Numbered from the stretch's first letter, positions 14,104 through 36,939 are shown. The stretch is 64,000 bases of DNA from Ruminococcus sp. (GCA_030533265.1 JAUNJM010000003.1:11692-75691); one strand, 5' to 3'. The notes: generated from the sequence alone by a model not told the origin. Numbers and translations: made by a program.

Positions 14104-14135
14104 TAAAAAAACCACAGGCTATTTAAACCTGTGGC
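14104..14135 (-). terminator. Terminator of the TPP riboswitch expression platform
   Basis: CCACAGG-loop-CCTGTGG followed by T7 on the minus strand, between aptamer and thiT. Confidence 0.8.
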
Positions 14136-14149
14136 ATAAAGCTCTGAAT

Positions 14150-14236
14150 ATTTTCCTACGTCGGCATTATCCGAATCAGGTTATGGGTCGAAACTCAATC
14201 GTTTCCTCTCAGCCATTCAGCTCCCCTTTTTTATAT
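14150..14236 (-). ncRNA. TPP riboswitch
   Basis: GGGGAGCTG..GGCTGAGAG...GACCC..AACCTGAT..GGATAATGCC..CGTAGG core, upstream of thiT. Confidence 0.95.
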
Positions 14237-14343
14237 GCAATTTTCACTCTTTGAAAAGTATACCACATATTCTGACAAAAGTCAACAGCAAATTTCGATA
14301 TAAAAATAAAAACCGCTGCCACTTTTGCGACAACAGTTTTGTT

Positions 14344-14428
14344 TGGTGGGAGAGGATGGATTCGAACCATCGAAGCTGAAAGCAACAGATTTACAGTCTG
14401 CCCCCTTTGGCCACTCGGGAACTCTCCC
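14344..14428 (-). tRNA. tRNA-Tyr(GTA)
   Basis: Cloverleaf GGGAGAGTTCCCGAGTGG...CTGTAAA...GGTTCGAATCC...CCA. Confidence 0.97.
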
Positions 14429-14454
14429 AAATATTAAATTATAATAAAAATAAA

Positions 14455-14530
14455 TGGAGCTGGTGGACGGACTCGAACCCCCGACCTGCTGATTACAAAT
14501 CAGCTGCTCTACCAACTGAGCTACACCAGC
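14455..14530 (-). tRNA. tRNA-Thr(TGT)
   Basis: GCTGGTGTAGCTCAGTTGG...TTTGTAA...GGTTCGAGTCC...CCA. Confidence 0.97.
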
Positions 14531-14726
14531 TTATTTTACTGTTTTATGCTTGTCAACAGCTTTTGTCCGACAGCTTAATTATTATACACCGTATATGTGA
14601 AAATGTCAATACTTATTTTGCGATTTGTATATGTGCACAAAAAATGTTACTGCTAATTATGCTGTTTTGTAGCGTACTGTAAAAAACGCCTCCACGCTAT
14701 CGGTGGAGGCATAATGATATTTCATG

Positions 14727-26252: not shown

Positions 26253-27763
26253 GTGATTTGGCAAGAACTGCCATGCATAAGAAGGCAAATTGGCTGAGAA
26301 CTTTTTTCAGACACCGTCAGCATCCTTTGAAAATTCTGATTTATACCTCAAAGAATATCTGGTTGCTTGCAATTCCTCTGACCAAGTATCTTATCGCAAG
26401 CAAATTTGACTTTCAAAACTGGATAAAAACTAACTGGGTAGATATTCTTACTATAGTTGTTATTTTCGGACTTGCATTTTTCAGGTGGGTGTTTGTCTAC
26501 TATGAAACGGAAAGTGACGGAATTGTTGCACATACCGGACTTTTCGGAATGATGACAACAAAGGTATATTATAGTGAGATAACGACAATGTCCTGTTGTC
26601 AGAGCTATCTTCAAAGACTCTTCAATGCCTGTACGCTGTATATCGAAACCAACGCAAAATCTCTTTCAGGTACGGAAATAAAGCTTGATTTAAGAGAAAA
26701 ATGTGTCAACGAAATTTATGATATTGTGACAGCACAGTGCAAAAACAATAACAAAATGACCATAAAGCCTAAGCAGACTCATCTCCTGATTTTTTCACTG
26801 CTGTTTTCATCGGCTGTTTCAGGTATGATAATTTTCGGTATGTTCATGTTTCAGCTTTACCGATTTGTCGGACGAGAGATTGAGGAAAAGCTGATAACAA
26901 CTGTAAATGGAGAAATAACAAAGGTTAATCTCACTATACTTCGGTTTACAAGCTCGATACCGAAAATCATACAGATAACTGCTCTGACGATAATCGGAGG
27001 CTGGTTGCTGTCGTTTATAGTCAACCTTATGAGGCACTGCAACTTCAAGGCTACAAGGTGTGGATCACAGCTTCTCATAAAAAGCGGAGTGCTTATCAGA
27101 CGCAGATACGTCATAAACCGTGATAAAATCAATTATTTTGACTATCAGAAATCGCTTTTGATGAAACTTTTCAGAATATGCTCTGTCACGATACATTGTA
27201 CAGGCTATGGAGCAAGATACCGTGAGATCTCAGCTCTTATTCCGATAACGACAATGAGCGAGGTGAGAGCCTCTCTCAAAATACTTGAACCACAGATTCC
27301 TCACACAGTTATCGAAATAAAAACGACCCCAAAAGATATACCGAGATTTATGTTCATGCCTGTGGTGTATGGATTCATCCCACCGATTGCAGGAGGGATA
27401 TTAAAGCTTTTATTCCCGTCATGGAGCAAAGAGATAGATATTCTTATGGTGATTGCACTTATTCCGTTTGCATGGAAGCTTATCGTTGCAATAGTAGCAT
27501 CCTATAATACATCCGTAGGCTTTAAAAACGGATACTGCACATTAAGATATTGTCATTTTTACAAGTTCCATAAGATAATAATGCCTAAAGAAAATATCAG
27601 CAAAACAGTCGTTTCACAAACATTGTTCCAGAAGATAAGCCATACCTGCAACCTGAAAATATATACGAATTCAGAGAAGACCTGTTTTCACAGGCTGAAA
27701 AACCTGCCTCTTGAAAAAACTCTTGACCTCTATTTGCGTGAAGGCTTGCAGACGTTTTTCTGA
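26249..27763 (+). CDS. Membrane protein with repeated bPH_2 domains, YdbT-like
   Basis: HPL start motif; three TM-pair/PH repeats (QSYLQRLF, QKSLLMKLF, QTLFQKI); start uncertain. Confidence 0.65.
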   Translation: MSDLARTAMHKKANWLRTFFRHRQHPLKILIYTSKNIWLLAIPLTKYLIASKFDFQNWIKTNWVDILTIVVIFGLAFFRWVFVYYETESDGIVAHTGLFGMMTTKVYYSEITTMSCCQSYLQRLFNACTLYIETNAKSLSGTEIKLDLREKCVNEIYDIVTAQCKNNNKMTIKPKQTHLLIFSLLFSSAVSGMIIFGMFMFQLYRFVGREIEEKLITTVNGEITKVNLTILRFTSSIPKIIQITALTIIGGWLLSFIVNLMRHCNFKATRCGSQLLIKSGVLIRRRYVINRDKINYFDYQKSLLMKLFRICSVTIHCTGYGARYREISALIPITTMSEVRASLKILEPQIPHTVIEIKTTPKDIPRFMFMPVVYGFIPPIAGGILKLLFPSWSKEIDILMVIALIPFAWKLIVAIVASYNTSVGFKNGYCTLRYCHFYKFHKIIMPKENISKTVVSQTLFQKISHTCNLKIYTNSEKTCFHRLKNLPLEKTLDLYLREGLQTFF

Positions 27764-27883
27764 CAGACAAACACGATTTACCGATACAGACTAAATTTGT
27801 ATCGACCTAATGGGTATACTTATTCTCATAAGCGCTCAATAGGTTCAAACCGATAATATAAAACTATCTGTATTACCCGGTTG

Positions 27884-27972
27884 CTTGTGCAAAATAAACA
27901 AAAAAAGAATTGTAAATTCTTCGTTAAAAACGTCGGATAACACTTGCAATAAACGCAGTGTTGTAGTATAAT
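27884..27972 (+). promoter_or_regulatory. Duplicated hydrogenase promoter, copy A (drives hydC)
   Basis: TTGCAA-17-TATAAT; 75/89 ungapped identity to the reverse complement of 33548-33636. Confidence 0.85.
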
Positions 27973-28053
27973 ATTTATGTAGTATATTTTGAATGTAAAA
28001 TATTTCTTCGGCAGTCCTTGTCGGAGAAAAAGGAAATAATGGAGGTATGTTTT

Positions 28054-28554
28054 ATGAGTAAGAAGCCAAAGATGTATCCATTTAATGGAACAGCTGAGGA
28101 TGAACAGAAGCTCAGAGCTGTTATTGAAAAACATAGAAATCAGCCTGGTGGACTTATGCCTATTCTTCAGGAGGCACAGGCTATTTATGGTTATCTTCCA
28201 TATGAAGTACAGTCAATAATCGCAAAAGAGCTTGATATTTCAATGTCAAAGGTTTATGGTGTTGCAACATTCTATTCTCAGTTCTCACTTACTCCAAAGG
28301 GCAAATATCAGATCAGCATCTGTCTTGGAACAGCTTGCTATGTTAAGGGTTCTGACAAGCTTCTTGAGGCAGTTGAAGAAAAACTCGGCATCAAAAACGG
28401 AGAATGTACACCTGATGGCTTGTTCTCAATCGACTGTTGCAGATGTGTTGGTGCTTGCGGACTTGCACCTGTTATGCTCATCAACGAGGATGTTTACGGA
28501 AAGATTGATCCTAAGCAGGTTCCTGAGATTCTTGAATCATACATGAACAGATAA
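28054..28554 (+). CDS. Bifurcating [FeFe]-hydrogenase 2Fe-2S subunit (NuoE/HydC/HndA-like)
   Basis: LQEAQAIYGYL, VATFYSQF, CLGTAC, CVGAC; GGAGG RBS. Confidence 0.93.
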   Translation: MSKKPKMYPFNGTAEDEQKLRAVIEKHRNQPGGLMPILQEAQAIYGYLPYEVQSIIAKELDISMSKVYGVATFYSQFSLTPKGKYQISICLGTACYVKGSDKLLEAVEEKLGIKNGECTPDGLFSIDCCRCVGACGLAPVMLINEDVYGKIDPKQVPEILESYMNR

Positions 28555-28576
28555 TTTTATTTTACTTACAGAATAT

Positions 28577-28610
28577 AAGCTCACCGGATTTAATTCCTGT
28601 GAGCTTTTTT
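28577..28610 (+). terminator. Terminator after hydC
   Basis: AAGCTCAC..GTGAGCTT stem plus T run. Confidence 0.8.
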
Positions 28611-28803
28611 GATTAGAAATCTACTTTACAAAAAGGATGGCTGTTATAATTATGCAAACGGTAAGAGGAAGGTAATTGTCATCTATACGAAAAGTCAGGA
28701 TACAAGAGAACAGGAAAGATTGAAGTCATAAACGATAGAATGTCGTTGGTATATTATGAAAAGTAGTAAAACTAATTTTAATTTGTAAATCTGAATATTA
28801 TAC

Positions 28804-28839
28804 AAAAATCCCACAGAGAAAATTATCTCTGTGGGATTT
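28804..28839 (-). terminator. Terminator after hydA
   Basis: AAATCCCACAGAGA/TCTCTGTGGGATTT stem, T run on the minus strand. Confidence 0.8.
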
Positions 28840-28884
28840 ACTTCTCTATTAAGCAAGAGTCTGCATTTTTGCAGTCATGAGAGA

Positions 28885-30621
28885 TTAAAGACCTCTCTTA
28901 ACATATGTTGTATGGAGAAGGTGATGAGCCTTTTCTGAACCTGGTTCACCAAGATATTCAGCATAGAGTTCCTTGATTGCAGGGTTCTCATGTGACTTTC
29001 TGATTGGCATATTAGCGTCAATGTTGTAGAGAACCTTGGCTCTTTCAGCACGAATATCAACAGTGTTTCTAATGTATGCAGGCTGCTGTGGCTGTCCACC
29101 ACCGTTTACACAACCACCAGGACATCCCATTATTTCGATGAACTGATAATCAGCTTCACCACTTTCAACCTTCTTGAGAATTTCCTTAGCATTTACAAGA
29201 CCTGAAGCAACAGCTACCTTAACGTTAAGACCTGCAACTTCATAAGAAGCTTCCTTGATACCGTCAGTACCACGAACATCATTAAAGTCGAGAGCCTTAA
29301 GCTCTTCACCAGTAAGAGTTTCGACTGCAGTTCTGAGAGCAGCTTCCATAACACCACCAGTTGCACCGAAGATAACTCCTGCTCCTGTTGAAAGACCAAG
29401 TGGCTGATCAAATTCTTCATCAGGAAGCTCAGTAAACTTGATACCTGCCTTCTGGATCAATCTGCCGAGCTCTCTTGTTGTAAGAGCGATATCAACATCA
29501 GGTACACCTGCAGCGTCCTCATCATCTCTGCCAATCTCGAACTTCTTAGCGGTACATGGCATAATAGCTACAACTACGATGTCCTTAGCATCAAGACCCA
29601 TCTTTTCAGCATAATAAGTCTTTGTGATAGCACCGAACATCTGCATTGGTGACTTACAGCTTGAAAGGTTATCGATAAGCTCAGGGAAATAATGCTCACA
29701 ATATTTAACCCATCCTGGTGAACAAGATGTGATAAGTGGGAGCTTTCCACCGTTCTTGACTCTTTCGATGAACTCGTGAGCTTCTTCCATGATAGTGAGG
29801 TCAGCACCAAAGTCAGTATCGAATACCTTGTCAAAACCAACTCTGCGAAGAGCCGCAACCATTTTGCCTTCAACGTCAGTACCGATTGGATAACCGAAGC
29901 ATTCACCAAGACCAGCTCTTACAGCAGGAGCAGTCTGAACGATAACAGTCTTATTTGGGTCAGCAATAGCAGCTAAAACGTCATCAACGTTATCCTTTTC
30001 TCTGAGAGCACCGGTTGGGCAAACAGCAATACACTGTCCACATGAAACACAGCTTGTTTCACCAAGACCACATTCAAAGCTTGTGCTGAGAACTGTATCA
30101 AAACCTCTTTCGTTAGGACCGATAACACCAACACTCTGAACCTTTTCACATACAGCAGCGCAACGACGGCAAAGAATACACTTGCTGTTATCTCTGATCA
30201 TGTGAGCTGATGTATCGTCAATTTCAGTTTCTGTCATTTCACCGTCATAACGTGAATCATCAACGCCGAGATCGTGACAAAGCTTGAGAAGCTCACAGTT
30301 GCCACTTCTTACGCATGAAAGACAGTTTTTCTTATGATTAGAAAGAATAAGCTCAAGAGTCATTTTTCTTGAGTTGAGGACTTTTGGAGAATTTGTGACA
30401 ATTTCCATGCCCTCAGCGATAGGGTAAACGCATGAAGCAACAAGGCTTCTTGCACCCTTTACTTCAACTACACAGATACGGCAGGCACCGATCTCGTTAA
30501 TTTCTTTAAGGAAGCAAAGAGTTGGGATTTCTATACCGGCAATTCTTGCAGCTTCAAGGATTGTAGAACCCTTTGGAGCAGAAATTGCAACGCCATTGAT
30601 TTTAATATTTACCATTTCCAT
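28885..30621 (-). CDS. hydA: [FeFe]-hydrogenase catalytic subunit (group A, HydA/HndD-like)
   Basis: N-terminal 2Fe-2S, His-ligated and 2x4Fe-4S motifs; H-cluster motifs TSCSPGW, MPCTAKKFE, EIMGCPGGCVNGGGQP. Confidence 0.95.
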   Translation of the reverse strand: MEMVNIKINGVAISAPKGSTILEAARIAGIEIPTLCFLKEINEIGACRICVVEVKGARSLVASCVYPIAEGMEIVTNSPKVLNSRKMTLELILSNHKKNCLSCVRSGNCELLKLCHDLGVDDSRYDGEMTETEIDDTSAHMIRDNSKCILCRRCAAVCEKVQSVGVIGPNERGFDTVLSTSFECGLGETSCVSCGQCIAVCPTGALREKDNVDDVLAAIADPNKTVIVQTAPAVRAGLGECFGYPIGTDVEGKMVAALRRVGFDKVFDTDFGADLTIMEEAHEFIERVKNGGKLPLITSCSPGWVKYCEHYFPELIDNLSSCKSPMQMFGAITKTYYAEKMGLDAKDIVVVAIMPCTAKKFEIGRDDEDAAGVPDVDIALTTRELGRLIQKAGIKFTELPDEEFDQPLGLSTGAGVIFGATGGVMEAALRTAVETLTGEELKALDFNDVRGTDGIKEASYEVAGLNVKVAVASGLVNAKEILKKVESGEADYQFIEIMGCPGGCVNGGGQPQQPAYIRNTVDIRAERAKVLYNIDANMPIRKSHENPAIKELYAEYLGEPGSEKAHHLLHTTYVKRGL

Positions 30622-30639
30622 TGTAATTCATCCTCCCTC

Positions 30640-32454
30640 TTACTTTTTAGAAATAGCCTTAAACTTACATGTAGTCATACAAGCACCACATTTAACGCAC
30701 TTTTCAGGATCGATTTCAAGAGCAGGAAGCTTCTTTCCAGGAGCGATATAATCAGTCTTTGAAATAGCATCAGCAGGACAGTTCCTAGCACATATACCAC
30801 AGCCGATACACTTTTCCTTATCAATCTCAAACTGGAGAAGATCCTTACAAACACCTGCAGGACACTTTTTGTCAACAACGTGAGCGATATATTCATCCTT
30901 GAAGTAACGCAAAGTTGAAAGAACAGGGTTAGGAGCAGTCTGACCAAGACCACAAAGTGAGTTATCCTTTATGTAGTAGCAAAGCTCTTCGATCTTGTCA
31001 ATATCCTCGAGAGTAGCCTGACCCTTAGTAACCTTGTCAAGCATTTCAAGAAGACGCTTAGTACCAATACGGCAAGGAGTACACTTACCACATGATTCGT
31101 CAACAGTAAACTGGAGGAAGAACTTAGCAATATCAACCATACAGTTATCTTCGTCCATAACGATAAGTCCACCTGAACCCATCATAGACCCAATCGCAAT
31201 GAGGTTATCATAGTCGATTGGAACATCGAGGTTTTCAGCAGAAATACATCCACCTGAAGGGCCACCTGTCTGAGCAGCCTTGAACTTCTTGCCATTAGGA
31301 ATACCACCACCGATTTCTTCGATGATAGTTCTGAGTGTAGTACCCATAGGAACTTCAAGAAGACCTGTGTTGTTAATCTTACCACCAAGAGCGAATACCT
31401 TAGTACCCTTTGACTTTTCAGTACCCATTGATGCAAACCACTCTGCACCATTGAGAATGATCTGAGGGATGTTAGCATAAGTTTCAACGTTGTTGAGGAT
31501 AGTAGGTCTTTCAAACAAGCCCTTTACAGCAGGGAATGGAGGACGAGGACGAGGCTCACCTCTGTTACCTTCAATAGAAGTCATGAGCGCAGTTTCCTCA
31601 CCACAAACGAAAGCACCGGCACCAAGTCTGAGCTCAATATCAAAGTCGAAACCTGTGTCAAAAATATTCTTTCCGAGAAGACCATATTCATGAGCCTGCT
31701 CGATAGCGATCTCAAGACGCTTAACAGCGATTGGATACTCAGCTCTTACATAGATATAACCCTGTGAAGCACCGATAGCATATCCTGCGATAGCCATAGC
31801 TTCCAGAACAACGTGAGGGTCACCTTCGAGAACTGAACGGTCCATAAATGCACCTGGGTCACCTTCGTCAGCGTTACAGCAAACATATTTCTGTCCACCG
31901 TCCTGAACGAAGTTTCTTGCCATCTGCCACTTACGGCCTGTTGGGAATCCTGCACCTCCACGACCACGAAGTCCTGAAGCAAGGATCGTGTCGATAACCT
32001 CTTCAGGAGTCATCTCTGTGAGGACTTTACCAAGAGCCTCATAGCCTCTTGTACCGATATATTCATCAATCTTTTCAGGGTTGATAACACCACAGTTACG
32101 CAATGCAATTCTTTTCTGGTGCTTATAGAAATCAGTATCCTGAATTGATTTTACTTCACCATTTTCAACAGTTTCATCATAAACAAGACGTGTAACTACA
32201 CGACCCTTTACGAGATGTTCAGAAACGATCTCCTCAACATCACTTTCTTTAACCATTGCATAGAAAGTGCCCTCAGGATAAATGATCATGATAGGACCTA
32301 AAGCACAAAGTCCATGACAGCCGGTTTTAACTACCTGAATTTCATTTTCAAGACCGTTTTTAGCGATCTCGGAATTGAGCTTTTCGATAATAGCCTGACT
32401 TCCTGAGGAAGTACAGCCTGTTCCGCCACAAACCAGAACGTGTGAATGATACAT
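30640..32454 (-). CDS. NADH/FMN-binding hydrogenase subunit (NuoF/HydB/HndC-like)
   Basis: GLRGRGGAGFPTG, NADEGDPGAFMDR, GGPSGG, ESCGKCTPCR, two C-terminal 4Fe-4S clusters. Confidence 0.95.
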   Translation of the reverse strand: MYHSHVLVCGGTGCTSSGSQAIIEKLNSEIAKNGLENEIQVVKTGCHGLCALGPIMIIYPEGTFYAMVKESDVEEIVSEHLVKGRVVTRLVYDETVENGEVKSIQDTDFYKHQKRIALRNCGVINPEKIDEYIGTRGYEALGKVLTEMTPEEVIDTILASGLRGRGGAGFPTGRKWQMARNFVQDGGQKYVCCNADEGDPGAFMDRSVLEGDPHVVLEAMAIAGYAIGASQGYIYVRAEYPIAVKRLEIAIEQAHEYGLLGKNIFDTGFDFDIELRLGAGAFVCGEETALMTSIEGNRGEPRPRPPFPAVKGLFERPTILNNVETYANIPQIILNGAEWFASMGTEKSKGTKVFALGGKINNTGLLEVPMGTTLRTIIEEIGGGIPNGKKFKAAQTGGPSGGCISAENLDVPIDYDNLIAIGSMMGSGGLIVMDEDNCMVDIAKFFLQFTVDESCGKCTPCRIGTKRLLEMLDKVTKGQATLEDIDKIEELCYYIKDNSLCGLGQTAPNPVLSTLRYFKDEYIAHVVDKKCPAGVCKDLLQFEIDKEKCIGCGICARNCPADAISKTDYIAPGKKLPALEIDPEKCVKCGACMTTCKFKAISKK

Positions 32455-32474
32455 AATTCGTACTCCTCCTTATA

Positions 32475-32837
32475 TTACTTATATGTGTATTCTTTAACTA
32501 CCTGTCCACGCATGAGGTGCTTTTCTATAACCTCTACTGCCTTTTCAGGAGTCATCTGAACATATGTGATCTTATCTTTACCAGGCTCCATAACCTCTAC
32601 GATAGGTTCATACTGACAAAGACCGATACAACCTGTCTGAGTAACAACCACCTTGTCTGAAAGCCCTTTTTCTGCAACTCCCTCAGCAAGAGCATTAAGA
32701 ACAGGTCTTGCGCCAGATGCTATACCACAAGTTGCCATACCTACAACAACTCTTGTTGTGTCGATATCTTCCTTACGAAGACCAACCTGACTCTGCATCT
32801 TTTCACGTATAGCCTTGAGTTCTTCCAAAGATTTCAC
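32475..32837 (-). CDS. Thioredoxin-like (2Fe-2S) ferredoxin subunit (HydD/HndB-like)
   Basis: VGMATCGIASGA, TGCIGLCQYEP; GTG start. Confidence 0.9.
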   Translation of the reverse strand: MKSLEELKAIREKMQSQVGLRKEDIDTTRVVVGMATCGIASGARPVLNALAEGVAEKGLSDKVVVTQTGCIGLCQYEPIVEVMEPGKDKITYVQMTPEKAVEVIEKHLMRGQVVKEYTYK

Positions 32838-32887
32838 TTTAAATCACCAATCCTTCTAAAATTTTATTTTGTGCCAAAAGCTGTTGC

Positions 32888-33445
32888 TCACAAAATATTA
32901 CCTGCATCAGCCTCCAGCTTGTTTTCTGTCAAAAAATCCCGGATATACGCTGAAACCTCAGGGGTATCAAAAGGCACATCTCCAAGAATTTCCCTGAGCT
33001 CTCTTGTATCCAGAACAAATTTCCTGTCATCGACGCTGTAGCTATAAACAAAGTCAATGTCCGTATTGAGCGTTATCAGACTGTAAATGGTTGAGGTCAT
33101 ATCACCCAACGGCATTCTGTCGATATGCGAAATACGGAAAGAAGCTGTTACTGTTGTTCCGACACCGACTTTGGAGGTGATGGAAAAATCACCGTCCGAA
33201 CATTCGGCAGCAAGCTTGAAAAATGACACACCAAGTCCTACTTTTCGGGTAGTTCTTGTTGTATAAAACGGGTCACATACCCTTGAAAGCTGTTCCTCGT
33301 TCATACCACAGCCGTTGTCCTTGATGATGATAGTCATAAGGTCTTTTTCTAAACTTGAATCAACGGATATTTCAATAAGTGATGCTTTTGCTTTTACAGA
33401 ATTCTGAGCCACGTCCAAAACATTGAGGGAAAGTTCGGTCATCAT
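32888..33445 (-). CDS. HATPase (histidine kinase-like) protein of the hydrogenase cluster
   Basis: DVAQNS, DNGCGM, DPFYTTRTTRKVGLG, HIDRMPLGD. Confidence 0.9.
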   Translation of the reverse strand: MMTELSLNVLDVAQNSVKAKASLIEISVDSSLEKDLMTIIIKDNGCGMNEEQLSRVCDPFYTTRTTRKVGLGVSFFKLAAECSDGDFSITSKVGVGTTVTASFRISHIDRMPLGDMTSTIYSLITLNTDIDFVYSYSVDDRKFVLDTRELREILGDVPFDTPEVSAYIRDFLTENKLEADAGNIL

Positions 33446-33495
33446 TAATTAAATCTGCAACCGTTCCTTCCGAAAAATGAGCCTTGTGCTGTCAT
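33445..33495 (-). CDS. Candidate 16-aa leader peptide MTAQGSFFGRNGCRFN
   Basis: GGAGG 9 nt upstream of the ATG; stop overlaps the HATPase start (TAATG). Confidence 0.4.
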   Translation of the reverse strand: MTAQGSFFGRNGCRFN

Positions 33496-33547
33496 TTTCA
33501 CGAACCTCCGTTCAAACATTTTCTCAGAATACTATGCACCTACGACA

Positions 33548-33636
33548 ATTATACTACAATTAATCTATTATTTCAAGTATTATGCGACGTTTTTAATGAA
33601 GAATTTACAATTTTATTTTTGTTTAGTTTGCACAAG
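33548..33636 (-). promoter_or_regulatory. Duplicated hydrogenase promoter, copy B (drives HATPase-hydD-hydB-hydA)
   Basis: TTGAAA-17-TATAAT; inverted near-copy of 27884-27972. Confidence 0.85.
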
Positions 33637-33790
33637 AGTCCTGATTGAACAGATCAAGACAGGTTATCAGCCTATAATCTGCAAGAGCATTGCACCTGCT
33701 TGCAAAAATAAGAAAAGTGTGGTATACTCAAAGTGTAAAATATGACCATATCGGCTGATCGCCGACAAATTGATTTAAGGAGCTTTTGAT

Positions 33791-34144
33791 ATGACTATTG
33801 GTGACGTTAAAAACTATCTTAATGCTGAAATACTTTGTGGAGAGGAATACCTGCACAGAGAGGTGCATACGGCCTGTGGTTCTGACATGATGAGCGATGT
33901 GCTTGCTTATGTTAAGGATCAGTCTGTGCTGTTGACAGGACTTTGCAACCCACAGGTTGTAAGAACTGCTGAAATGATGGACATAATATGCCTGTGCTTT
34001 ATAAGAGGCAAGCGTCCTCCCCAGGAAGTTATCGATCTTGCAAAGGAACGTGAGCTTGTTGTTCTCGCATCATCAAAAAGAATGTTTGATGCTTGTGGAA
34101 TTCTTTATGCAAACGGACTTGCAGGAGGTGCTGTTCTTGAGTAA
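33791..34144 (+). CDS. DRTGG domain protein
   Basis: GSDMMSDVL, LLTGL..PQVVRTA. Confidence 0.88.
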   Translation: MTIGDVKNYLNAEILCGEEYLHREVHTACGSDMMSDVLAYVKDQSVLLTGLCNPQVVRTAEMMDIICLCFIRGKRPPQEVIDLAKERELVVLASSKRMFDACGILYANGLAGGAVLE

Positions 34145-34556
34145 TTTGGTATTAAAATATAATGTTGACTCGAAGGACTTCACAAGAGCAGGAGAGGCAT
34201 CAAGTGATGTAAAATCCAAGCTCAAGCAGATGGGAGTTCCACCTGAGGCAGTCAGAAAAGTAGCTATTGCTATGTATGAGGGTGAGATAAATATGGTTAT
34301 CCACGCAAATGGTGGAGAAATCACGGTTGAAATATCTCCGAAACAAATAATCATCACACTTGCCGATAAAGGTCCCGGAATCGCTGACATCGAGAAGGCA
34401 ATGCAGGCTGGTTGGTCAACAGCATCTGAAAATATCAGAGCGTTGGGATTCGGTGCCGGAATGGGACTTCCAAACATGAAAAAATACTCCGACGAGATGG
34501 ATATTCAGACGGAAATCGGTGTCGGAACTACTGTTACCATGAAGGTAAATATCTGA
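34137..34556 (+). CDS. Anti-sigma-factor-like Ser/Thr kinase (RsbT/HATPase)
   Basis: YEGEINMVIH, DKGPGI, GFGAGMGLPNMK; TTG start at 34137 after GGAGG. Confidence 0.88.
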   Translation: MSNLVLKYNVDSKDFTRAGEASSDVKSKLKQMGVPPEAVRKVAIAMYEGEINMVIHANGGEITVEISPKQIIITLADKGPGIADIEKAMQAGWSTASENIRALGFGAGMGLPNMKKYSDEMDIQTEIGVGTTVTMKVNI

Positions 34557-34578
34557 TTTGTAAGATAATACATATAGA

Positions 34579-35868
34579 ATGGAGGCGACAGCTTTGGATG
34601 AGGTTTTTACAAATTCCGTAAGGCTTGACCCCGACCTGTGCAAGGGCTGTATAAATTGCTTGAAGCGTTGTCCGACACAGGCAATAAGAGTGCGTGGAGG
34701 AAAGGCTCACATAACAAAAGATTTCTGTATTGACTGTGGTGAGTGTATAAGAGTCTGTCCTCACCATGCAAAAAAAGCCTTTTATGAACCACTCGATGTC
34801 ATAAATAATTATAAGTATACCGTTGCATTACCTGCTCCGTCATTTTATGCACAGTTCAACAATCTTGACGATACAAATATCGTACTGAGAGCCTTGAAAA
34901 GAATGGGCTTTGACGATGTTTATGAAGTTTCGGCTGCTGCCGAGCTTGTATCGGAGCTTACAAGAGATTATATCGAAAAACACAGGGAAAATGCACCTTT
35001 TATATCTGTTGCCTGCCCATCGGTGGTAAGGCTTATACAGGTAAAGTTTCCCAACCTCATAGAACATCTGCTCAAAGTAAATTCTCCTGTTGAAATAGCT
35101 GCATCTGAAGCAAAGAGAATTGCAATGGAAAAGACAGGACTCAGTGCAGAAGATATTGGTGTTATATTCATTTCACCGTGTCCTGCAAAGGTTACGTCGG
35201 TAAAAAATCCATTAGGATACGAAAAAAGTGAAATTGATGCCGTTATCGCAATTAAAGAAGTCTATCCGAAAATCCTGCCACTTATGCTTGAATCTGTTGA
35301 TGACAACACCGATTTTTCATGTTCAGGAAAAATCGGTCTTAGCTGGGGGGCGTCAGGCGGAGAAGCAAGTGGTCTGCTCATTGACAACTATCTTGCTGCC
35401 GACGGTATCGAAAATGTTATAAAGGTACTTGAGGACCTTGAAGACCAGAAGATCTCTAACCTTGAGTTCATTGAGCTTAACGCTTGCTCAGGAGGCTGTG
35501 TTGGCGGAGTTTTACAGGTTGAGAATCCTTATGTTGCAAAGTCAAAGCTTAAGCAGCTCAGAAAATACATGCCTGTTTCAAAATCGCATATCGGAAATGC
35601 GATTCCATGTAATTCATACATAACGGATGATATTGAGTATAAGCCTGTTTTCAATCTCGGAAAGGACTTTGCTGACGGATTGGAAAAAATGGAGCAGATG
35701 GAGGAAATATATCAGCGTCTGCCCGGACTTGATTGCGGTTCTTGCGGAGCACCAACCTGCAAGGCTCTTGCAGAGGACGTTGTAAGAGGAATCGCAAAAG
35801 AAAAAGATTGTGTACACCTGCTCAGAGAGTACATTCATAAAATGACTAACGAGCTTGGTGACATTTGA
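34579..35868 (+). CDS. Putative sensory [FeFe]-hydrogenase-like Fe-S protein
   Basis: Two N-terminal 4Fe-4S clusters; degenerate H-cluster motifs (SVACP, SPCPAK, ELNACSGGCVGG); C-terminal LPGLDCGSCG..TC Fe-S domain. Confidence 0.85.
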   Translation: MEATALDEVFTNSVRLDPDLCKGCINCLKRCPTQAIRVRGGKAHITKDFCIDCGECIRVCPHHAKKAFYEPLDVINNYKYTVALPAPSFYAQFNNLDDTNIVLRALKRMGFDDVYEVSAAAELVSELTRDYIEKHRENAPFISVACPSVVRLIQVKFPNLIEHLLKVNSPVEIAASEAKRIAMEKTGLSAEDIGVIFISPCPAKVTSVKNPLGYEKSEIDAVIAIKEVYPKILPLMLESVDDNTDFSCSGKIGLSWGASGGEASGLLIDNYLAADGIENVIKVLEDLEDQKISNLEFIELNACSGGCVGGVLQVENPYVAKSKLKQLRKYMPVSKSHIGNAIPCNSYITDDIEYKPVFNLGKDFADGLEKMEQMEEIYQRLPGLDCGSCGAPTCKALAEDVVRGIAKEKDCVHLLREYIHKMTNELGDI

Positions 35869-35885
35869 TTTCTGAGGTGAAAATA

Positions 35886-36221
35886 ATGACAGTAAACGAA
35901 CTTTTGAACAAAACCAGCCTGAAGCCATTGTGCATCGCTGACGGAGAAAGAGAAATAAAAGGCATCTATAACTGCGACCTTATGAGCGTTGTTATGTCGA
36001 AAGGCTTTTCAGGTGCTTGTTGGGTGACTATCATGTCAAACATAAATTCAGTAGCAGTGGCAGCACTTACTGATATGGCAGTTATCATCCTCGCCGATGG
36101 TGCAGCTCTTGATCAGCTTATGATTGACAAGGCAAAGGCTCAGGATATAAACGTTTTACAATCGGACAAGCCTATTTTTGAAACGTCGCTTGAGATATAC
36201 AAGCTTCTGAATAATGCTTAG
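35886..36221 (+). CDS. DRTGG domain protein
   Basis: CDLMSVVM, WVTIMSNINSVAVA. Confidence 0.85.
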   Translation: MTVNELLNKTSLKPLCIADGEREIKGIYNCDLMSVVMSKGFSGACWVTIMSNINSVAVAALTDMAVIILADGAALDQLMIDKAKAQDINVLQSDKPIFETSLEIYKLLNNA

Positions 36222-36939
36222 CCTGTCTTATGATCTGCATATACACTCCTGCCTTTCTCCATGCGGAGATGACGAAAGCACTCCTGCAAACATCGTCGGC
36301 ATGGCTTTTGTGAAGGGGCTTGACGTTATTGCTCTCACCGACCATAACGCCGTACGCAACTGTATTGCAGCAAAGGAAGTTGCTGATGCTTACGGAGTGA
36401 CGCTTATATGTGGAATGGAGCTTACAACAGCAGAAGAATGTCATGTCGTTATGCTTATGCCGAGTCTTGAAAAAGCTCTTGAGCTTGACGAATACGTCCA
36501 CGCAAGACTTATGCCTATAAAGAACGATCCTCGTATTTTCGGCAAACAGGAAGTCAGGGATAGTGATGACAACATCATTTCAACAGAAGATACACTGCTT
36601 ATCACTGCGACCTCGATCTCATTCGGCGAAGCATTTTCACTGGCAGAGAGTCTTGGCGGAGTGGCAATCCCTGCACACGTTGACAAGTCAACAACGTCTG
36701 TAATATCAAACATGGGATTTATCCCACCTGAAAGCACATTCAGGACCGCAGAGTTCAAAAACACTGACAATATTGAACGCTATAAGGAGCTTTATCCGTA
36801 TCTGAAAAACTGCAAGATAATAACAAGCTCCGATGCACACTATCTTCAGGATATCAACGAACCCGTGAATTTTATCCACGCAAGAGAAAAATCTGCTGAT
36901 GCGATAATTGATGCGATAAGGAATCCTATTATTCTTTAA
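36214..36939 (+). CDS. PHP domain phosphoesterase
   Basis: DLHIHSCLSPC, TDHN, PAH, SSDAH. Confidence 0.9.
   Translation: MLSLSYDLHIHSCLSPCGDDESTPANIVGMAFVKGLDVIALTDHNAVRNCIAAKEVADAYGVTLICGMELTTAEECHVVMLMPSLEKALELDEYVHARLMPIKNDPRIFGKQEVRDSDDNIISTEDTLLITATSISFGEAFSLAESLGGVAIPAHVDKSTTSVISNMGFIPPESTFRTAEFKNTDNIERYKELYPYLKNCKIITSSDAHYLQDINEPVNFIHAREKSADAIIDAIRNPIIL

Follow-up and report, generated by a model that had tools for sequence, protein, structure and literature searches.

How does a single hydrogenase come to be encoded by two convergent gene units, each standing behind its own copy of one and the same promoter region? The locus that raises this question lies in a 64,000-nucleotide stretch of Ruminococcus sp. 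DNA (GCA_030533265.1, JAUNJM010000003.1:11692-75691; hereafter the window, with positions counted from its first letter), part of a metagenome bin of rumen/gut Ruminococcus in 65 contigs (1.41 Mb, 83% complete). Here hydC runs alone towards a unit of four genes (HATPase gene, hydD, hydB and hydA) on the opposite strand, and a similar promoter-like region faces inwards at the head of each. Our preferred reading, to which we give a probability of about 60%, is that one promoter/operator region present twice would place both units under the same control, the hydC of a sensor-linked hydrogenase cluster having been replaced by a hydC from plain hydC-hydB-hydA operons (the plain type) and the promoter having been copied before it.

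The two copies, A at 27884-27972 on the plus strand and B at 33548-33636 on the minus strand, realign without gaps at 75 of 89 columns, as a first-pass annotation of this DNA had reported, and a repeat finder widens them to 107 nt at 79% identity (27866-27972 and 33548-33654). The mismatches (columns 11, 22, 24, 40, 53, 58, 64, 70, 71 and 73-77) are concentrated in the spacer between the -35 and -10 hexamers, also as annotated: seven of its 17 columns differ against seven of the remaining 72 (Fisher p=0.004), these seven fall within eight adjacent columns (70-77), and seven mismatches within any 10-column window have a permutation p of 0.0026. The 60 columns upstream of the -35, put at about 90% identity in that annotation, are identical at 54 positions, and the copies share no identical run longer than 15 nt. 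Each copy carries at its inner edge a predicted sigma-70-like promoter, TTGCAA-17-TATAAT in copy A (10/12 to consensus) and TTGAAA-17-TATAAT in copy B (11/12), and the homology stops exactly at the -10. A dispersed repeat unrelated to hydrogenase genes, considered at first pass, is rejected: the region occurs only twice genome-wide, both times at a hyd promoter position and with no third copy in the assembly, and its 26-nt core found no match in 100 shuffles of the window.

The gene names given earlier are supported by Pfam. HydA holds the H-cluster domain, the small-subunit motif and N-terminal Fe-S domains (Fe_hyd_lg_C 2.6e-102, Fe_hyd_SSU 3.5e-28, Fer2_4, NADH-G_4Fe-4S_3), HydB the Complex1_51K (1.1e-44) and NADH_4Fe-4S (1.9e-35) domains, and HydC a 2Fe-2S_thioredx domain (2.1e-53) with its Cys motifs visible in the sequence. 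One each of hydA, hydB and hydC was found in the assembly, and the two units would jointly encode one NADH/ferredoxin-dependent [FeFe]-hydrogenase of the electron-bifurcating type. The division into two convergent units, each with its own terminator, also stands, with a hairpin and U-run after both hydC and hydA. The single operon of the HydABC type is absent: hydC is read from the other strand, and a promoter-like site and a terminator belong to it alone. Beyond copy B, a HydS-like protein (Fe_hyd_lg_C 1e-35, FeS 7.9e-13) is flanked by DRTGG, kinase-like ATPase and PHP genes in the same order as in G197 and G064, two genomes of a neighbouring genus that give the best matches to the cluster.

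Gene order in relatives sets this arrangement apart. In G197 and G064 the genes PHP, orf118, hydS, orf172 and DRTGG stand on one strand and hydC, HATPase, hydD, hydB and hydA on the other. The co-directional order downstream of the DRTGG/PHP genes that had been taken as usual holds in other families, where the order is either co-directional or has hydC leading the sensor genes; it fails for the nearest relatives of the cluster, whose sensor genes diverge from the structural operon. Across the HATPase-type loci examined, hydC lies on the hydB/hydA strand in 38 of 38 and none is split. In the window, no hydC of the sensor-linked lineage heads the structural genes or runs in their direction. Among public loci found with hydC, a complete plain hydC-hydB-hydA operon occurs in 97 of 160 and a convergent hydC in none. 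The HATPase gene is present in 211 of 401 genomes across the order; within the genus, 25 of 26 other species genomes gave no match at E<=1e-10, and the single match is a 356-aa open reading frame (ORF), 35% identical. hydC itself is present in 22 of the 24 same-genus genomes searched, and all 13 loci fetched from hydC-bearing ones are plain operons. In the same-genus genomes G001 and G008 that operon is located elsewhere, between a GH26 gene and thiT. Synteny with these two genomes stops right after the stop codon of the bPH gene that precedes copy A, so that hydC lies inside a variable segment.

The ancestry of the cluster differs from that of its flanks. Nine of its ten genes, their order and their divergent layout are held in common with G197/G064 at 75-93% identity (PHP 76/75%, orf118 76%, hydS 84/83%, orf172 77/78%, DRTGG 79%, HATPase 78/77%, hydD 86/84%, hydB 92/93%, hydA 84%), with hydC at 65/64%. 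For MnmG, identity is 89% to G001 and G008 of the same genus and 72% to G197/G064; for HtpG it is 89/86% against 71/69%, and for the flanking bPH protein 78-79% to the same genus against 39% to the neighbouring one, so the flanks are native to the genus. That HydB and HydA are far closer to the neighbouring genus than the housekeeping proteins are points to horizontal exchange of the cluster. In quick trees (LG+G4) of 50 representatives picked from 122 loci holding all three genes, HydA and HydB are both sister to G197 inside the sensor-linked clade (Shimodaira-Hasegawa-like approximate likelihood ratio test, SH-aLRT, 100).

HydC tells a discordant story. In a more careful tree of 69 distinct sequences it falls inside the plain-type clade, made up of 32 plain rows and this one (ultrafast bootstrap 95, SH-aLRT 97), as sister to the main Ruminococcus clade (82/78). 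It is closer than the HydC of G197 to 135 of 135 plain-type HydCs (median 68.5% vs 58.4%), and at 14 diagnostic positions it has the plain-type consensus at ten, the HATPase type at three and neither at one. Over codons 89-135 its DNA is 76-84% identical to four of five plain-type genes, 62-80% to the fifth and 47-67% to G197/G064. For 185 locus pairs with HydB at 88-96% and HydA at 79-89%, HydC is 70-96% identical (median 90), against 62% here, a regression residual of z=-6.8 matched by none of 4885 within-type pairs. In our reading a plain-type hydC took the place of the cluster's own and then changed faster, perhaps in adapting to new partners. The inversion first thought to have broken the operon finds no support: the nearest relatives are divergent and this hydC belongs to the plain hydCBA lineage rather than to that operon, which makes loss and replacement of hydC, plus promoter copying, the likelier history. 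A mosaic or converted hydC, hinted at by amino-acid windows, was rejected, as codons 1-90 are equally identical to both lineages in DNA; no conversion tract was found at DNA level.

Three steps would account for the present layout. The sensor-linked cluster would have been obtained from, or shared with, the neighbouring genus; its hydC would have been replaced by a plain-type hydC, in this lineage or in a donor; and some 90-107 bp of the cluster promoter with its upstream boxes would have been copied in front of that gene. Copy B would still stand where the promoter stood ancestrally, in the gap from which the H2-sensor module and the structural operon diverge. As in the nearest relatives, that operon would once have begun with hydC; here that gene is gone, and a 16-codon ORF overlapping the start of the HATPase gene comes first. 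Its stop sits where the hydC stop overlaps the HATPase start in G197/G064, and the ORF may preserve translational coupling to the HATPase gene. The sole hydC of the assembly, of the plain lineage, would instead be served by copy A from beyond the 3' end of hydA. As an outcome the three subunits would respond together, HydC being made in step with HydA and HydB though outside their operon. Since the operator of copy B is flanked by the -35 of that copy on one side and the -35 of the predicted divergent promoter of the sensor module (33700-33728) on the other, it could serve both. A thin case can be made for B as the parent and A as the copy, because the hyd-specific block described below sits at the orthologous place in relatives.

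That block emerged from comparison of copy B with the gap between DRTGG and hydC in G197/G064, which aligns poorly except in two blocks, TTGTGCA and ATTAAAGATGTCG. The 12-nt word derived from this alignment, TTAAARAYGTCG, occurs twice in the present genome, in the two copies and nowhere else; once in the 2.0 Mb of G197, at the hyd promoter 240 bp ahead of hydC; and likewise at that position in G064, as one of three matches there. Both copies contain TTAAAAACGTCG, which the genome has at no other place, and the relatives carry a near-identical box at their hyd promoter. Selection on upstream operator sites, as first proposed, is thus plausible for a box that is unique to the copies and is met again where the nearest relatives have their hyd promoter. 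Upstream of hydC, TTGTGCA/TGCACAA occurs in 13 of the 15 sensor-linked loci from the same family (many being close kin), in none of 22 others (three of which offer less than 200 nt) and in 25 of 130 loci of the plain type. It occurs 319 times in the genome, 24% of these outside ORFs against 11.6% non-coding DNA, and the fuller TTGTGCA-N5-7-ACAA has 17 of its 22 genome matches outside ORFs. Such 16-17-bp boxes lie, for example, at C29:2849, C55:3966 (a perfect palindrome, TTGTGCAAATGCACAA) and C64:56378 in the genome, and at 27885-27901, 33619-33635 and 14625-14640 in the window. The neighbouring genes are mixed (pgi, groES, nrdD, ptsH for HPr, a spoIIAA-like gene and an amylase, besides those at both hyd promoters) and point to no nameable regulator; the box is probably the site of a general one, and the copies appear to combine a general-factor site with a hyd-specific site.

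Set against the Rex-controlled hydrogenase promoters of Clostridia, the TTGTG...CACAA-like box ends as a Rex box does, but at 16-17 bp it is 1-2 bp shorter than the 18-bp Rex consensus. A Rex-type gene is present in the genome; none of the 33 matches to that consensus in the window (at most three mismatches) falls in 27866-27972 or 33548-33654, and a Rex operator of that consensus was rejected for the copies. An idea we hold to be rather improbable as it stands is that the conserved ~60 bp, and the box TTCTTCNTTAAAAACGTCG in particular, may serve as the DNA target by which the H2-sensing module of HydS, DRTGG, kinase and PHP proteins regulates the synthesis of hydrogenase, and that its copying before a hydC of another lineage may have kept a hybrid enzyme (plain-type HydC with sensor-type HydA/HydB) balanced.

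Several observations weigh against the replacement and copying proposed here. Promoter activity and co-regulation are predicted from consensus matches and position. Against B as the parent speaks its -35 to -10 core, which resembles the hydC promoter of G001/G008 at 25 of 31 positions (a score reached by 1-2 of 500 shuffles), a match inflated by the consensus hexamers. The upstream part of copy B matches G064 weakly (16 of 500 shuffles) and G197 not significantly. Copy B yields weak and conflicting matches to upstream regions; copy A has no significant match to those of G001, G008, G197 or G064, and a blastn-short search of both copies against 180 relatives' loci gave nothing at hydC promoters. 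A relic of the lost hydC could not be demonstrated in the copy B leader, whose local and anchored alignments to G197/G064 lacked significance (equalled by 246-256 of 300 and 793 of 1000 shuffles; for G064, by 39 of 1000). Strain variants at 27878, 27931 and 27953 mean that copy A is not invariant. Finally, the HydC branch is long (0.34 vs a median of 0.11) in an alignment of 170 usable columns only, residues 55-66 (ELDISMSK) resemble the G197 type, and an approximately unbiased (AU) test did not reject a tree forcing HydC together with G197/G064, though the result was borderline (log-likelihood difference 40, p=0.058; p=0.152 on the quick tree). These last three points would suit a version of the history favoured at first pass, in which the hydC native to the operon moved with its promoter, by inversion or relocation, and thereafter evolved at an unusually high rate, and a single move of promoter and hydC from the operon head to beyond hydA does turn the G197 layout into this one. 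We nevertheless regard this as unlikely: fast evolution should not move a protein nearer to another clade, yet this HydC is closer to every plain-type HydC compared, plain-type at most diagnostic positions, nearer to that type in the DNA of codons 89-135 and grouped with it at 95/97.

It is similarly doubtful that the copies are the decaying leftover of a rearrangement, with at most one working promoter, whose upstream likeness reflects a recent event and one multi-base spacer replacement instead of selection. The seven mismatches of columns 70-77 could indeed be a single event, a second -10-like element comes after copy A, which also varies among strains; against this, both copies keep near-consensus hexamers at 17-nt spacing and at the right distance from their first genes, homology ends exactly at the -10, and the 12-nt box is kept at the hyd promoter of G197/G064 where other intergenic DNA no longer aligns well. 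In invertible promoter switches such as fimS-type elements and the invertons of Bacteroides, inverted repeats flank a promoter-bearing block of DNA, and the inverted arrangement here, with the outer 60 bp more alike than the inner part, recalls them. The suggestion that the copies recombine and flip the 5.6-kb block, swapping the upstream halves of the promoters, is nonetheless highly improbable. Unlike in those switches, the repeats here are the promoters themselves, 84% alike and with no identical run beyond 15 nt; no recombinase domain turned up in the scanned ORFs of the 12.9-38.5 kb stretch; in three DNA runs the contigs have a single orientation, a weak test as contigs drop rare forms; and a flip would leave each gene its own core promoter, with little change. 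Among the joints listed, the sole opposite-strand joint (28350/31626, one contig) lies away from the repeats.

A chimeric contig of two organisms is barely credible, even though the sequence comes from a metagenome bin in 65 contigs and the cluster is more like another genus than its flanks are. Both flanks belong to the same genus, and the misassembly at a junction that the first-pass annotation had considered is not seen. The stretch is present, whole or in part, in 20 public runs from 12 studies; contigs were compared from three DNA runs of three studies (X1, X2, X3) and one RNA run (X16), assembled contigs being a source that drops rare variants and cannot show starts. The DNA contigs bridge bPH, copy A, hydC and hydA on one side and hydB, HATPase, copy B and the sensor genes on the other, at even depth. 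X2 record 17 spans 27500-28348 and runs on for ~3.2 kb leftwards, X3 record 25 spans 27712-29355, X1 record 3 spans 28635-30796, and X2 record 23 spans 31849-34000 and runs on for ~7.9 kb rightwards; X1 record 8 and X3 record 30 also cover the copy B side. One RNA contig (metatranscriptome, record 16) holds the HATPase gene with 52 nt of its leader, and run X16 has no listed piece over hydC, where depth may stem from other organisms. Of the spacer between the two terminators, 124 nt are missing in X2 and X3 contigs and present in X1 and the window, a strain-level indel.

Table 1. Positions of the promoter copies, genes and predicted signals of the locus
Feature	Position	Strand	Basis or detail
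Promoter copy A (predicted)	27866..27972, core 27884-27972	+	Repeat and consensus matches
Copy A, TTGTGCA-type box	27885-27901	+	
Copy A, candidate hyd-specific box TTAAAAACGTCG	27924-27935	+	
Copy A, -35 TTGCAA	27944-27949	+	
Copy A, -10 TATAAT	27967-27972	+	
Predicted hydC leader, ~75-80 nt	27973..28053	+	Ribosome-binding site GGAGG 28041-28045
hydC, NuoE-like [2Fe-2S] subunit, 166 aa, plain hydCBA lineage	28054..28554	+	Pfam, tree
hydC intrinsic terminator, hairpin and U6	28569..28611	+	-18 kcal/mol, z -4.7
Strain-variable 124-nt part of hydC-hydA spacer	28661..28784		Contigs of DNA runs
hydA-unit terminator, 14-bp hairpin (28806-28839) and U-run	28801..28839	-	z -5.7 for the stretch
hydA, [FeFe]-hydrogenase catalytic subunit, 578 aa	28885..30621	-	Pfam
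hydB, NuoF-like FMN/NADH subunit, 604 aa	30640..32454	-	Pfam
hydD, small thioredoxin-like [2Fe-2S] protein, 120 aa	32475..32837	-	Pfam
HATPase_c protein, 185 aa, first long gene of minus-strand unit	32888..33445	-	Pfam
16-codon leader ORF (MTAQGSFFGRNGCRFN) with own GGAGG; stop overlaps HATPase start (TAATG)	33445..33495	-	
Promoter copy B (predicted)	33548..33654, core 33548-33636	-	Repeat and consensus matches
Copy B, -10 TATAAT	33553-33548	-	
Copy B, -35 TTGAAA	33576-33571	-	
Copy B, candidate hyd-specific box TTAAAAACGTCG	33596-33585	-	
Copy B, TTGTGCA-type box	33635-33619	-	
Divergent promoter-like site of sensor module, TTGCAA-17-TATACT with a TG	33700..33728	+	Consensus match
Sensor module, whole	33791..36939	+	Pfam
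DRTGG gene	33791-34144	+	
HATPase_c_2 kinase-like ORF; true start probably later	34038-34556	+	
HydS-like [FeFe] protein with C-terminal Fe-S motif	34579-35868	+	
DRTGG-like ORF	35865-36221	+	
PHP gene	36214-36939	+	

Around these features a few further observations can be recorded. The hydC leader contains the second -10-like element, TGTAGTATAT (27978-27988), so that copy A is followed by a second possible -10, and over 27978-28003 it is alike at 20 of 26 nt to the divergent DRTGG promoter at 33718-33743, including TGTAAAATAT just downstream of the -10-like element. No known RNA element was found in either leader, a thiamine pyrophosphate (TPP) riboswitch and two tRNAs being detected elsewhere in the scanned stretch; the copy B leader folds no better than shuffles (z +0.46), and GC content shows no shift across the cluster. 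At 14135-14726, the site matching the GH26-thiT place of the G001/G008 hydCBA operon, the window holds a promoter-like TTGACA-17-TATAAT, which aligns in position with the relatives' hydC promoter, together with tRNA-Thr, tRNA-Tyr and the TPP riboswitch. The DNA 3' of the bPH gene (27764 onward; compared with L262 and L263) differs in three same-genus genomes, with an XRE-like regulator in G008, GC-rich repeats in G001 and the hydrogenase cluster here, and seems to be a hotspot of changing gene content. Two plain hydC-hydB-hydA sets stand in tandem in one Oscillospiraceae genome (L134:10001-18635), the second 43-55% identical to the window proteins.

The locus can be set beside two known systems. 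With the trimeric bifurcating HydABC of Ruminococcus albus 7 and Thermotoga maritima it shares the same three subunit families, and its hydC groups with such plain operons; those enzymes, however, are encoded in one hydC-hydB-hydA operon, whereas here hydC stands alone and convergent and hydB and hydA are of the sensor-linked lineage. The enzyme is predicted to couple NADH and ferredoxin to H2. The HydABC of R. albus is described in passages of PMC10838669 as a chromosomal bifurcating enzyme whose transcript level is nearly constant (citing Zheng et al. 2014), and Ruminococcus-type bifurcating hydrogenases as a major rumen H2 source. With the sensor-linked clusters of related Oscillospirales (DRTGG, kinase-like ATPase, HydS and PHP with hydC-HATPase-hydD-hydB-hydA) it agrees in nine of ten genes as well as in their order and divergent layout; it differs in that its own hydC is missing, a hydC of another lineage stands on the far side, and the promoter is present twice. 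Passages of PMC5707799 quote the model of Zheng et al., with the HydS-like protein as a putative H2 sensor signalling through a kinase, and name Rex as a redox regulator; DNA-level regulation of sensor-linked hydrogenases is not given in the passages of PMC5707799 and PMC10838669 drawn on here. A literature search on promoter duplication in split operons returned nothing relevant among the matches listed.

Judged by its genes and their order, the split, promoter-duplicated layout is a variant of a known hydrogenase system, one not met in the 38 other HATPase-type clusters examined. It offers a natural case in which an operon has been split and co-expression apparently rescued by promoter copying, and it suggests that the HydC subunits of two hydrogenase lineages are exchangeable. 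It also provides two independent copies, together with orthologues, of a short candidate operator that would be directly usable for pull-down or footprinting.

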